A DNA stretch of 62,377 nucleotides, filler included, from Basidiobolus ranarum (Eukaryota), in assembly GCA_040143965.1 (NCBI GenBank). It is 4 parts of 4 records of this genome, joined end to end, with 100 filler letters (N's around TTAATTAATTAA, not from the genome) between each part and the next. Parts side by side here need not be neighbours in the genome. Positions count along the whole stretch, not along the records: positions 1 to 15,585 come from JASJQH010007249.1; 3 more parts are not named here. The stretch is one strand, 5' to 3'. A program made the position numbers and the translations under genes. How positions within the stretch are numbered: position 1 is the stretch's first letter; each line of letters begins with the position of its first letter. The notes beneath the pieces are model-generated. The model did no database searches and was not told where the DNA came from. It saw nothing but the letters and a program-made list of their open reading frames with translations. Positions 10,055-46,920 of this stretch are shown one piece after another.

Positions 10055-11250
10055 ATGACTTCAGCTCAAAAAAACAAACGCAACTCATAAGATAATAAAG
10101 ACCCTGGTTCTTGACCCTGATGCTTTTACGCCCGAAATGGCCAGACTTGCCATAACAGAAATTATGGAACAAAAGGCAACACCTACTCAAATGGCGGCCT
10201 ATTTAGTCTCTTTACGCTTACAACAGCTGGACCGTCGTCCCGAAATTGTTGCTGCCTGTGCCATAGTTATGCGCGACCACGCCTTGTATGTTGATTTTTC
10301 GGTGCATCCTCATCTTACTTCCTCTGTAATTGATATTGTTGGCACGGGAGGTGACGGTCACAATACGTTCAACGTATCTAACTCAGCCGCTATTATCGCT
10401 GCTGGAGCGGGGTGTAAGGTTGCCAAGGTAGTTGGGGTCAGCCCATATACGTTCGTATGATGCTTTACTTAAAATATCTTTACCTTGTAAATAGCATGGA
10501 AATAGGGCCTCTTCATCTAGCTCAGGATCGGCTGACTTATTAGAGTCATTGTCTTGTGTGCTTTCTAATGTGACGCCTGCTAGAGTCCCTGAGATCTTGA
10601 ATTCCAGTAATATCTGTTTCCTATTCTCTCAGATTTATCATCCTGCTATGAAGCATGTATCTGCGGCTAGAAAAGAGATTGGAGTACCTACAATATTTAA
10701 CATACTTGGCTCATTAAGTAACCCAGCCATTCCAGCAAGAATGGTTTTGGGTGTTCACTCACATTACCTTGGGCAGCTTATTGCTGAATCTTCAAAGCTC
10801 ATGGGAATTGAAAGAGCCTTTGTAGTCTCTGGATTCGAGGGATTAGACGAGATCAGTCCAGAGCTGGACACATATGTAAGATAAAAGCCCGTTGTTTTTT
10901 TTATGAAACAATAGTAGCATTTTCTTAAACCAAAGCTATGGGAATTAACCAACGGTGAAATCACTGAAAGAAAAATATCTCCCGAAGATTTTGGACTCTC
11001 TCGTCATTCTTTAAGCTTAGTCGCAGGTGGAGATTCCGTATATAATGCCAAGATATTAAACGATATCCTTAACAATAACTACGAGGGTCCAATTTTGGAC
11101 TTTATACTAATTAATACCTCTGCTTTGCTTGTGCTTGATGAGAAGGCTTCTGACTTTAAGGAGGGTGTTGCTTTGGCACGCGAAGCAATACGATCCGGTA
11201 AAGCTAAAGAGGCATTGAATGCTTTTGTTTTGGCTACTCAGTCTGCATAG
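10055..11250 (+). CDS. TRP4: Anthranilate phosphoribosyltransferase, 3 exons, with an apparent +1 frameshift near the start
   Basis: Motifs DIVGTGGDGHNTFNVS, AKHGNRASSSSSGSADLLE, YHPAMKHV, GLDEISP. Introns 10428-10494 and 10876-10935; stop TAG at 11248-11250. Confidence 0.93.
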
Positions 11251-11722: not shown

Positions 11723-14700
11723 ATGGTAGTCCAAAACGAAAGAATAACTTACTTGGAAGTGAAGTTGTTTGAAGCCAAAAACCTGACTCCTATGGATGAA
11801 GATACTGGTATGCACATTAGAGTGATAAAGATATACGAGCAACATATGATAACACTAACAATATCCCGAATTTCAACTCGAAATAGGCTCTTCCGATCCT
11901 TACGTGATAATGACGGTTGGAAGTGGAAAAGGTGGTCAATTTGCTCAGTCAAAAACCATTCACGAAAGCTTGAATCCAGTATGGAACTCTAACTTTAAAC
12001 TATTCTTGACTGAAGGTGACTCTAAGGTAGTTAATAGTTCTTCTTTTTTTTATATATCCAGTTTATTTGTACTCACTTGGGTTTTTGGACAAGATAAAAT
12101 TTACTCTATTTGATCGTGATTTTCTCTCTTCGGATGACCCATTGGGTGAAGTAGAATATGATTTTTCTGGACTCACATTCGAATCTTCAGTTGAGAAAAA
12201 TTTGCCCATTGCTGGAAGCCAGGTATAGATGAGAAAGAAAATTTTAAGATTGGTCACAATTATTCAACACTTGTATATTCATAACAAGGGTCAACTACGC
12301 TTTAGTCTTCGTTTAGTTAAAGTAGATAGTAAGTTTCTAGAATAGTACTGCTCACTTTTTGACCTTTCACTTACCTTTTATACTTTTAGGTAATCACGCC
12401 AGAGCACTCTTGGACAATCCTGCTAACACCTCTGTAAATAAATTTCCCATTATTGCCGGTAGAATTCGTTATTAATAACTTACTAATTATACTAAGCTAA
12501 ATCGTCCATGGGCTGGTGCCATCTACCCACCAAGTCAATTCATTCCGTCAAGCAATAGCTTACCAAGCGAGTCCCTTCAATTAGACCATGTATACGGATA
12601 TCGTACACGTGATTGTCGCAACAACATATTTCCTTTACCTACCTCCACCAGTGAATCCCCTGAGCTTGTATATTTTGCAGGCTCGGTAGGAATTGTTCAC
12701 GATGTTAGATCAAATACACAACGATTCTTCACTGGACATAACGATGATGTTATTAGCATAGCAGTACATCCTTCAGGTGAGTATACAGCCACTGGAGACG
12801 TTGCTTCAGTTATTGATCCACAAGGCGGTGTCAAAGTGCACATTTGGCAATCTAAGAAACCAGAAGCACCCCCTGTGGCAACTCTAAAGTGCGGATCAGG
12901 AACTATATTCAAAGGAGTTGTATCCATTTCTTTTTCACCTGATGGCAAATACCTGGTTGCTGTCTGCAAAGATAAGGATCACACCGTAAGTAAAATCAAT
13001 ATGCTTCTCTCTGTTTAAAACTTAACCACCCTCTGCGTACATATAGATTGAAATCTTTGATTGGAAATCGAGCGCCGAGCCCATAACCTCTATTAGCGGC
13101 CACTCTGATTTGGTAAGATGGTATTTACTTACTAAGCTTAGAAGAACACGATAACTCATCATGCAGACAGGTACTCGATATATTGTTCAACCCATATGAT
13201 GGGGCCGAGTTTGTTACTTTTGGAGTAAAGCATATTAAATTCTGGCGCTTTGATGGAAACCCTCAAGCATTGAACAGCAAGAAAGGGATATTTGGACCGC
13301 TTGGAAAGATACAGGTAATATTCTAATATTTCTTTTTAACTAGAGAAACGGCTATTCATTTACTCGATCAACACATTCTTTATCACAGACCATTCTGAGT
13401 GGCACGTTTATCGATAAGGAAACAGTAGTCACTGGCTGTATGGATGGTGACATCTACTTGTGGGACATAGCTAAACGCCAAGTCAGCAGAGTTATTGCTG
13501 GTGCTCACAAAGTACGTTCATAAGCACCTCTGATTAAATTGGTTATCTCCTAATACATCAATTTTTATAAGGGCCCAATATATGCGGTTTATTTCAGCAA
13601 GACTAAGAATTGCATATACAGCGGTGGAAAGGATGGAAGGGTTTTGAAACATGATATGTCTAAAAAGATCGCTCCGCAAGCGATTTGGGAGGGAAGTAGC
13701 GTACGTGCTTTAGAAAGAAGTGGGGAAAACTCCTTGGTAGCAGGTACTGAGGATTCCGGAATTTTTCATTTGGATTTAACAGATACAAAGAAATCAAGAT
13801 TGATTGCTACAGTTAGTATTTTTGATTATATGAAGAGTACATTCTGAAGCGCTAACCAAACCTTAAGGCCCACGATAGCTTCAAAATGAGTGAGGTATGG
13901 GGATTGGCCATACATCCAGACGCGCCAGAATTTATCACCTGTTCCGATGATCAAGTCGTTGCGCATTGGGATATGCATAAAAAGACATTGGTTGGTTTCT
14001 CCAAAGATCTTTAATTTGTAACACGATTAATGACCAGTGCCAAATTTCTCAATAGATCTGTAAAGCAAAACTTGATGTTCCTTTGCGCTCAGTAGCCATT
14101 CATCCTAAGGAGCAACAATTAGCTGTGACAGCAACGACAGATAAGGTACTTTTGTTCCCATCTGGAAGATCAACTTGGACGTACACTCACCAAAAACATG
14201 ATGTTTAAGTTGTTTATCTTGAACTTGCAAGGGCTCTCCAAGATTCACGAAATTGAACCAAGAAAAGGAGGAACAAAGGATAATTGGCAACATGTGGTCA
14301 AGTACTCTCCAAATGGGGAGTATCTTGCTGTTGGAGCGTTCTCGGAGGATAGTGGCATTGATGTGTATGCAACAAAAGGGTGGAAACATCTTGGAACTTG
14401 TCAGGTATGGATATTTATATATGTGTATGTCTGATTGGAATGATTACTAGTAAGTCGGATTGTAATCTCTTTTATTGTTTATTAAAAGGGGCATTCAAGT
14501 AGAGTGATGCGAATGGACTGGTCCAATGATTCCCAACACCTGCAATCAAGTAGTCTTGATTCTGAGCTACTGTTTTGTAAGTCACCCTCTTACCAACGGA
14601 ACATCCATGATATCGAACTAGATAGCTTATATATGATATGTAGGGAACATACCCTCCTGTGAACAAGAGAAGCATCCTTCAAAACTGTCTGATGTGGAGT

Positions 14701-15191
14701 GGAACACTGTTGAATGCCCAATTGGTTGGCCAACTCTGGGGGTCCAAGAATCCTGGATGAATGGGCGAGATGTGAGTGCTGATTTACTCATTATCTTGGG
14801 AAATATTTACTCATTGTCATCGCCACCATGTATTAGATTTATGCGGTTTCGAGAAGCCCAAGAATGAATATCTTGGCCAGTGGGAATACACGCTCCCAAA
14901 TCAAGCTGTACGCATACCCAGCGTATCAAGAAAATGTATAGCTTAGTCATACATCTTGTCAAGAAACATGATCAGTAACACAGTAATTTATTCTAGGCAC
15001 CCAGCAAAACTTACCAAGGACATTCGTCTTTTGTTACGAATGTTGGTTTTTCTTGTGACGGTGAGTATTTAATCTCCACTGGCGGTATGGACGGATCCGT
15101 CATGCAGGTAAGTTAATTTGAAGTACCCATGATAGACTCCAGGACTCTACTAAACCAATACTTCAATTTTTAGTGGAAAGTAGTTGAATAA
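11723..15191 (+). CDS. C2 domain + EML/EMAP-like (HELP motif + WD40 tandem propeller) protein, about 17 introns
   Basis: Spliced translation gives a C2 domain (LEVKLFEAKNLTPMDEDTGSSDPYV...LNPVWN...FDRDFLSSDDPLG), a HELP motif (LQLDHVYGYRTRDCRNN) and WD40 repeats (FFTGHNDDVISIAVHP, EVWGLAIHP, GHSSRVMRMDWS, GHSSFVTNVGFSCDGEYLISTGGMDGSVMQW). Confidence 0.88.
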
Positions 15192-15485: not shown

Positions 15486-15585
15486 TTAGTTCTTGGTAAT
15501 TTCAACACCACCGGTAGCACCAAGGACTCTCTTGATATCACCGTAGATGGCGAATTGAAGGGAAGTCAAAGCACCAACCATGACA
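15486..15585 (-). CDS. MIR1: C-terminal fragment of the mitochondrial phosphate carrier; the rest is in the gap
   Basis: Minus strand reads VMVGALTSLQFAIYGDIKRVLGATGGVEITKN*, the typical fungal Mir1 C-terminus. Confidence 0.8.
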
Positions 15586-15685
15586 NNNNNNNNNNNNNNN
15601 NNNNNNNNNNNNNNNNNNNNNNNNNNNNNTTAATTAATTAANNNNNNNNNNNNNNNNNNNNNNNNNNNNNNNNNNNNNNNNNNNN
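15586..15685. other. Assembly gap with TTAATTAATTAA linker
   Basis: N runs flank an artificial all-frame stop linker. Confidence 0.98.
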
Positions 15686-46820: not shown

Positions 46821-46920
46821 NNNNNNNNNNNNNNNNNNNNNNNNNNNNNNNNNNNNNNNNNNNNTTAATTAATTAANNNNNNNNNNNNNNNNNNNNNNNN
46901 NNNNNNNNNNNNNNNNNNNN
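46821..46920. other. Assembly gap with TTAATTAATTAA linker
   Basis: N runs plus linker. Confidence 0.98.

Follow-up and report, generated by a model that had tools for sequence, protein, structure and literature searches.

Echinoderm microtubule-associated protein-like proteins (EMLs) have been studied almost only in animals, for example in the form of the EML4-ALK oncoprotein and of EML1 in cortical malformation. Microtubule binding by the animal proteins is ascribed to a coiled-coil and basic N-terminus, and the role of the TAPE domain is still debated. The sections of PMC4761370 cited here describe a trimerization domain and a Ser/Thr/basic linker in EML1 to EML4, a HELP motif that is buried between the propellers, an intact TAPE that associates with soluble tubulin, and, in EML5 and EML6, three HELP-WD units with no coiled coil. 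The best available guide to the propellers acting alone is EML2-S (ELP70), a natural TAPE-only isoform of human EML2. In the excerpted text of PMC12182296, this isoform is a tubulin binder with weak lattice localization, reported on tyrosinated or shrinking microtubules, and an excerpt of PMC10471123 gives its contact residues as an R-patch and three hydrophobic residues. The latter excerpt also calls the fly protein DCX-EMAP “unique” among the EMAP family, its coiled coil being replaced by DCX domains, which suggests that EMLs with a C2 domain were not among the forms known to its authors. Here we describe a gene at 11723-15191 (+) of a stretch of DNA from the fungus Basidiobolus ranarum (GCA_040143965.1; “the window” is this whole stretch of 62,377 nucleotides, filler included), the product of which joins a C2 domain to a HELP motif and two EML propellers. 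The protein is very probably a member of a conserved, unstudied EML subfamily, here called C2-EML.

The gene model was assembled by hand from the three forward frames of the sequence, starting at the first in-frame ATG, at 11723, and ending with the TAA at 15189-15191. The 17 introns, 56 to 84 nucleotides long, all follow the GT-AG rule, and the coding sequence of 2352 nucleotides encodes 783 amino acids with no internal stops. A database search with the largest exon as the sole query retrieved a deposited 783-residue protein (P0001), which the translated hand model matches residue for residue and which is named [quoted passage not shown] at NCBI. With a G+C content of ∼39% and short introns, the region has a eukaryotic, intron-rich appearance, and the span 11723-15191 holds one intact gene from a Basidiobolus-type fungus. 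Its parts are as follows.

11723-15191 (+): whole gene; 18 exons, 17 introns, 783 codons plus TAA; hand model
11723-11807, 11887-12026, 12094-12222, 12289-12328, 12390-12433, 12497-12985 (+): exons 1-6; hand model
13047-13112, 13171-13314, 13389-13511, 13572-13811, 13868-13990, 14056-14145 (+): exons 7-12; hand model
14210-14404, 14489-14576, 14644-14771, 14837-14935, 14997-15107, 15174-15191 (+): exons 13-18; hand model

Scored against curated cut-offs, a Pfam scan of P0001 placed C2 (PF00168) at residues 10-109 (E 3.1e-21, 76 bits, cut-off 22, profile positions 2-99 of 104), HELP (PF03451) at residues 169-212 (E 4.3e-13, 49 bits, cut-off 27), Beta-prop_EML (PF23409) at residues 220-485 (E 1.9e-64, 218 bits, cut-off 88), and Beta-prop_EML_2 (PF23414) at residues 510-781 (E 4e-108, 361 bits, cut-off 90). 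These scores are far beyond chance. Individual exons on their own also match the C2 and EML families, and exon 6 alone matches HELP. A preliminary description of this DNA had read a C2 domain and a HELP plus WD40 region in one spliced frame, and the 18-exon model, its identity with P0001, and the four Pfam domains bear this out. The protein is laid out along the gene as follows.

11723-12328 (+): C2 domain, residues 1-131; exons 1-4; Pfam C2 and predicted strands
12390-12433 (+): exon 5, residues 132-146; helix 132-139, then a flexible linker
12497-12562 (+): start of exon 6, residues 147-168; segment “NRPWAGAIYPP” that opens the EML module
12563-12694 (+): HELP motif, residues 169-212; Pfam PF03451
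12716-13766 (+), introns included: first EML beta-propeller, residues 220-485; Pfam PF23409; aligned to 4ci8_A
13895-15182 (+), introns included: second EML beta-propeller, residues 510-781; Pfam PF23414; Foldseek match to 4ci8_A

The EML part is complete. In the alignment to 4ci8_A (E 3.9e-99), query residues 163-782 cover the entire TAPE domain of human EML1, which has the same HELP and two propellers over its full length. An AlphaFold2 (AF2) model built from a 32-sequence alignment (A1) reached a mean predicted local distance difference test score (pLDDT) of 89.8 and a predicted template modeling (TM) score of 0.79. Foldseek with this model ranked 4ci8_A first (E 1.4e-58, TM score for the target 0.89, root mean square deviation 2.6, 645 columns, 33% identity). 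The C2 region is predicted to be an eight-stranded beta-sandwich (strands 7-19, 33-39, 46-49, 60-68, 75-82, 90-98, 107-113, and 120-131; pLDDT of the block 73-95). Its first strand corresponds in the alignment to strand two of the synaptotagmin C2A domain, and it has an extra C-terminal strand, 120-131, from exon 4; from these two features, the modeled strand order is probably the circularly permuted “type II.” A search of the ESM Atlas with residues 1-230 gave no usable match.

Between the C2 domain and the HELP/TAPE module lies a tether of ∼15 to 35 residues that is flexible and poorly conserved: the exon 5 linker differs in sequence between Basidiobolus paralogues, and pLDDT falls below 50 at residues 139-148. 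The EML module then opens with a conserved segment, with the motif [KR]PW.GA present in P0245, P0228, P0199, and P0008 and the consensus “RPWAGAI” in alignment A1. Most of 26 non-insect EML rows, including all five that bear a C2, align from query offset 1-4, and 49 insect EML2-like rows align from about offset 18-23. The preliminary description had also implied that the coiled coil and basic region of animal EML1 to EML4 are missing here, and so they are: the sole helix before the propellers in the AF2 model is the eight-residue one at 132-139, and residues 131-168 contain two K/R and have a net charge of 0. Where EML1 to EML4 have a trimerizing coiled coil and a Ser/Thr/basic linker, the C2-EML thus has a C2 and a neutral tether. 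The three-unit arrangement of EML5 and EML6 is likewise absent, since the 783 residues hold one HELP and one propeller pair, and the deposited “EML5-like” name is a best-hit label only. With one unit and neither a coiled coil nor a basic region, the protein is neither EML1-4-like nor EML5/6-like. EML2-S has no targeting domain, whereas the Basidiobolus protein adds a C2 to the same module. Drosophila DCX-EMAP provides a precedent for exchange of the N-terminal module with the TAPE kept, but its replacement consists of tandem DCX domains that bind and stabilize microtubules, whereas the Basidiobolus replacement is a lipid/Ca2+-type C2.

The architecture is not confined to Basidiobolus. A word-index search with the C2 region only returned 85 hits, 4 of which had a HELP, all from Basidiobolus; the wider family was missed by this search and surfaced only when phmmer was run exhaustively, which yielded 87,781 hits at E<=1e-3, of which 1,253 reached E<=1e-30, with the best 150 representatives listed. 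There, alignments extended through the N-terminus in P0160 (query residues 4-781), P0167 (9-783), P0207 (11-780), and P0226 (11-782), and the fragment P0199 aligned from query residue 77. Our own C2 hidden Markov model (HMM), built from seven of these proteins, found a C2 in 8 of the best 150 phmmer representatives, adding P0228 and P0262. A second word-index search gave 85 hits, 9 of them with a C2 by this HMM, which picked out 20 sequences in total. Pfam confirmed the C2 in all 12 full-length C2-bearing proteins scanned. Pfam C2 and both EML propellers occur together in P0002 to P0004 (Basidiobolus), P0160, P0167, P0207, P0226, P0228, P0262, P0290, and P0295, although HELP is not listed for P0160 at E<=1e-8. 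The fragment P0199 has the last third of a C2 by our HMM (E 1e-5) and no Pfam C2 at E<=1e-8. In the C2-EMLs, the C2 lies at or near the N-terminus and HELP starts 158 to 182 residues after the C2 start.

The carriers are Piptocephalis tieghemiana and Syncephalis fuscata in the Zoopagomycota, Neocallimastix spp. and Piromyces finnis in the Neocallimastigomycota, Cavostelium apophysatum and Rhizamoeba saxonica in the Amoebozoa, Paratrimastix pyriformis in the Preaxostyla, and Ancoracysta twista. The Ancoracysta protein (P0228) has a C1 domain (PF00130, E 9.1e-14, residues 4-54) before its C2, giving a C1+C2+EML order; C1 and C2 are the membrane-targeting pair of protein kinase C. In the chytrid Synchytrium (P0184), a long Ser/Arg-rich N-terminus stands in place of the C2. 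The idea of a local swap to C2, put forward in the preliminary description, does not fit this distribution, and neither does the link to flagella or centrioles that was to be sought in the phyletic pattern. Carriers include Neocallimastix, Paratrimastix, and Ancoracysta, which we take to be flagellate, and Basidiobolus, Piptocephalis, Syncephalis, and Rhizamoeba, which we take to be nonflagellate. The phyletic pattern of C2-EML does not track flagella. The part of PMC3281927 cited here describes an unusual, centriole-like nucleus-associated body in Basidiobolus; a link between it and the C2-EML gene would be speculation.

We also noted EML fusions to EF-hands in protist or metagenome records, namely P0005, P0006, P0030, and P0357 (precomputed Pfam lists PF13499, PF13405, and PF00036). 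By the same lists, these proteins likewise combine a Ca2+-sensor-type domain with HELP and EML propellers, but the sensor is an EF-hand and not a C2. P0005 and P0006 (1850 and 1763 amino acids) have at least two TAPE units each, and P0030 (400 amino acids) and P0357 (1013 amino acids) are shorter. To judge from such sequences, exchange of the N-terminal module on a constant TAPE is a habit of the EML family, in which Ca2+-sensor modules recur.

The C2 domain carries the acidic residues expected of a Ca2+-binding C2. A search of PDB sequences with residues 1-146 gave 55 matches at E<=1e-5, among them dysferlin, synaptotagmins 1, 3, 4, and 7, protein kinase C (PKC) alpha, beta, and gamma, NEDD4, E-Syt2, and the plant protein AT3G17980. 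In the HMMER alignment to synaptotagmin-1 C2A (chains 5kj7_E and 5ccg_E), D25, D32, D82, D84, and D90 are each matched to an Asp in “alD,” “sDpy,” or “yDfDrfskhD”; we take these five Asp to be the Ca2+ ligands D172, D178, D230, D232, and D238. This upholds the preliminary assignment of five Asp to the usual ligand positions. The codons lie as follows.

11795-11797 (+): codon of D25, the first Asp of loop 1 (“PMD”); on the “alD” Asp of synaptotagmin-1 C2A
11895-11897 (+): codon of D32 (“SDPY”); on the “sDpy” Asp; kept in 14 of the 14 rows that cover the loop
12112-12138 (+): loop 3 codons, with D82 at 12112-12114, D84 at 12118-12120, and D90 at 12136-12138; on “yDfDrfskhD”; D82 and D84 form the motif FDRD, and D90 belongs to the motif SDD

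A conservation table of the ligand columns was drawn up for 15 C2-EML rows. Asp fills all five columns in 5 of them, i.e., the three Basidiobolus proteins, Syncephalis, and Piptocephalis. Cavostelium, Rhizamoeba, and Ancoracysta have Asp in four columns and “A” in the first, with an Asp as the next residue (“AAD,” “PAD,” and “AAD”, respectively); in our reading of the loop, the missing fifth Asp is probably a one-residue alignment offset. Compared with classical Ca2+-binding C2 domains (synaptotagmin-1 C2A, PKC alpha and beta, E-Syt2, and the plant CAR proteins), the Basidiobolus C2 has the probable type II order, lacks a polybasic strand, and has as its partner a propeller module instead of a kinase, an SMP domain, or a second C2.

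By homology, this combination makes plausible a putative Ca2+-gated membrane tether for a tubulin-binding propeller, in line with the Ca2+-dependent membrane-to-tubulin linker proposed in the preliminary description. By analogy with the TAPE domains of EML1 and EML2-S, the TAPE module would bind alpha/beta-tubulin or microtubules; lacking the coiled-coil and basic region, the protein would not be held on the microtubule lattice, unlike EML1 to EML4. A rise in Ca2+ would let the C2 loops bind acidic phospholipid and so bring the tubulin- or microtubule-end-binding propeller to a membrane (the plasma membrane, the hyphal tip, or the nuclear envelope), where microtubule capture or dynamics would be changed locally. 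We regard the chances of this mechanism, taken alone, as evenly balanced, and we lean toward the broader account that combines the C2-EML gene, this mechanism, and the fungal history described below.

Several observations count against the mechanism. In the excerpt of PMC10471123, TAPE domains differ in microtubule binding between EMLs, and that of Drosophila DCX-EMAP gives no microtubule signal. The AF2 output comes without an inter-domain error estimate, and the C2 might dock on the propellers. Residues 35-58 contain only two Lys (K43 and K51) and show no obvious polybasic strand, and residues 1-130 have a net charge of -6. The ligands themselves vary: 5 of the 15 rows, of the Neocallimastigomycota type, retain D32 and D82 but show E and L at positions 84 and 90 and an insertion in loop 1, and loop 3 of Paratrimastix is shortened and degenerate. 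With degenerate ligands in some lineages, Ca2+ ligation is not common to the whole subfamily, and the role of the C2 may be a different one. By these alignments, the full acidic set is deeply conserved in C2-EMLs and not universal.

The same degeneracy, in lineages that nonetheless keep the C2, could be taken to mean that the C2 mediates protein interactions independently of Ca2+ or regulates the propellers within the same molecule, and that the protein is a soluble regulator of tubulin or microtubules with no membrane step. Many C2 domains function without Ca2+, and the acidic character of this one, together with the absence of a polybasic strand, points the same way. Yet the five Asp are kept across a very deep divergence, in Basidiobolus, Syncephalis, and Piptocephalis and, by the loop reading above, also in Cavostelium, Rhizamoeba, and Ancoracysta. 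The C1 that precedes the C2 in Ancoracysta also speaks for a membrane role, and the low-confidence, nonconserved tether between C2 and TAPE is what would be expected of two modules that act independently. We therefore consider a Ca2+-independent C2 unlikely, though it is the most serious competitor of the Ca2+-gated tether.

To place the Basidiobolus gene among EMLs, we compared TAPE units in two trees, one built with FastTree from 216 units from all stored EML hits and the other with IQ-TREE (“quick”) from 51 selected units over 608 columns (40 from single-unit proteins and 11 from 7 proteins with several units, leaving aside the other stored rows). The two trees agreed. Fungal TAPE units formed a clade with support of 99 in FastTree and 97 by the Shimodaira-Hasegawa-like approximate likelihood ratio test (SH-aLRT) in IQ-TREE. 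Within it were Zoopagomycota (with C2; support 99), Neocallimastigomycota (with C2; 100), and Chytridiomycota (no C2; 100), and Basidiobolus grouped with Syncephalis and Piptocephalis (99). Animal EMLs formed a separate clade (100). Outside the fungi, Cavostelium paired with Rhizamoeba (92), and Paratrimastix, which has the C2, paired with Trimastix marina, which has none in its transcript model (99). The fungal part of the tree suggests vertical inheritance within fungi, in which the C2 was presumably kept in Zoopagomycota and Neocallimastigomycota and lost or replaced in Chytridiomycota.

On both trees the C2-bearing rows are scattered and do not form one clade: the C2 label changes 6 times on the 216-row FastTree tree, with at least 4 changes forced by starred branches, and 5 times on the 51-row IQ-TREE tree, with at least 3 so forced. 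The C2 is also among the most mobile of eukaryotic domains, and repeated domain shuffling might have produced C2-EMLs separately in fungi, Amoebozoa, Preaxostyla, and Ancoracysta. We judge this improbable. The layout is the same everywhere, down to the spacing of HELP from the C2 start, and the C2 regions of the different lineages match one another through the family HMM at E 1e-16 to 1e-53 (some of them being seeds of that HMM). The deep backbone is open at 16 of 48 forks in the IQ-TREE tree. Forcing fungi, Paraphysoderma, both amoebae, Ancoracysta, and two Preaxostyla into one group cost only 2.07 log-likelihood units (approximately unbiased [AU] test, p 0.434), although this group was chosen after the tree had been seen, the test is a lenient one, and p >0.05 does not show a clade.

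The architecture is probably older than fungi, and a single older origin of C2-EML is possible, though these trees stop short of it. Taken further, the C2-TAPE protein might be the ancestral single-unit EML, already present before fungi, Amoebozoa, metamonads, and Provora diverged and lying near the last eukaryotic common ancestor; EMLs would then have served originally to couple tubulin or microtubule ends to membranes under the control of Ca2+, with animal EML1 to EML4, fly DCX-EMAP, and the chytrid forms as later replacements of the C2. We offer this as a tentative and rather doubtful proposal. If it were true, retention in the aflagellate Zoopagomycota would reflect a role at microtubules and membranes that has nothing to do with cilia and that might be exercised at the unusual Basidiobolus nucleus-associated body or the hyphal tip.

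All of this presupposes that the C2 is truly joined to the EML module, and the indirect evidence for the fusion is strong. The alternative, that two genes in head-to-tail order, a small one for a C2 and another for an EML, were wrongly fused in prediction, would draw on the short (44-nucleotide), nonconserved exon 5, on an ATG at 12229 in intron 3 from which a C2-less product is conceivable, and on the exon 3-4-5-6 junctions, which in Basidiobolus ranarum are a matter of prediction and conservation. The “small linker exons” of the preliminary description (about 12290-12500) turn out to be exon 4, which encodes the last C2 strand, and exon 5, which encodes the 15-residue linker. Exon 4 (12289-12328) provides the eighth strand at pLDDT >90 and is separated by only 168 nucleotides, including exon 5, from exon 6, whose opening “NRPWAGAI” also starts the EML module in C2-less EMLs. 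Exons 4 and 5 (40 and 44 nucleotides) together preserve the frame between the C2 and the propellers. No Met occurs between residues 37 and 397, and read-through of the exon 3 donor meets a stop after two codons. Fused products also appear in independent annotations and transcript assemblies of other species: P0228 is a complete open reading frame (ORF) on a transcriptome shotgun assembly transcript, P0207 and P0226 are ORFs on Trinity transcripts, and P0271 (786 amino acids) and P0294 (788 amino acids) lie on contigs of 2361 and 2367 nucleotides, exactly the size of their coding sequences, which we read as transcript contigs. An artifact of gene prediction is thus close to refuted.

Three smaller points concern the same exons. 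For exon 5, the donor at 12433/12434 alone keeps the frame; an alternative donor at 12458/12459 was rejected because it is in phase 1 and no acceptor of matching phase was seen upstream of exon 6. In intron 3 (12229-12288, +), the ATG at 12229 comes right after the read-through stop and is in frame with exon 4 (ORF 12229-12345), and a transcript starting in this intron could encode a C2-less form resembling the TAPE-only EML2-S. Relative to P0001, P0003, and P0004, P0002 from Basidiobolus meristosporus (750 amino acids) lacks part of the C2 (after “NLNP”) as well as the last C2 strand and the linker, which suggests exons skipped in an erroneous gene model and not a genuine difference.

Horizontal transfer to Basidiobolus, e.g., from an animal host or a protist, might be suggested by its life in animal guts and by the absence of Mucoromycota and Dikarya names among the EML matches listed, but it is already contradicted by the TAPE tree, in which Basidiobolus sits with Syncephalis and Piptocephalis inside a fungal clade that mirrors fungal classification and apart from the animal EMLs, and, given also the 17 short introns like those of neighboring genes, we attach next to no probability to it.

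The preliminary description did not recognize this architecture as characterized, and we found no description of it either: a literature search for C2-EML or EML phylogeny, judged on titles and the starts of abstracts, returned only unrelated co-occurrences, although supplementary tables might mention the architecture. C2-EML sequences are already public, with generic names, and the architecture will be listed in domain databases; what is gained is recognition and not new sequence. In C2-EML, the known EML family has an old branch that has gone unstudied. A widespread group that keeps the TAPE with a C2 (and in one protist with C1 and C2) amounts to a natural experiment on the TAPE alone, and it points to a testable way in which Ca2+ signals could direct tubulin-binding activity to membranes. 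To the picture of fungal evolution it adds another “protist-type” cytoskeletal gene kept in Zoopagomycota and Neocallimastigomycota.

Elsewhere in the window, three identical 100-nucleotide spacers (N runs around TTAATTAATTAA) at 15586-15685, 31225-31324, and 46821-46920 split the sequence into four pieces, which are separate short contigs, so that genes across a spacer are not known to be neighbors. Downstream of the C2-EML gene, a short open frame at 15486-15585 (-) reaches the end of the first contig; a 32-amino-acid piece of it had no Pfam match, and the frame probably represents a truncated neighboring gene, of which it would be the 3' end. The upstream neighbor, at 10383-11250 (+), ends 473 nucleotides before the start codon of the C2-EML gene. 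Two of its exon ORFs match Glycos_transf_3 (PF00591; E 1.8e-38 and 9.5e-20), the fold of anthranilate phosphoribosyltransferase (TrpD)-type enzymes.

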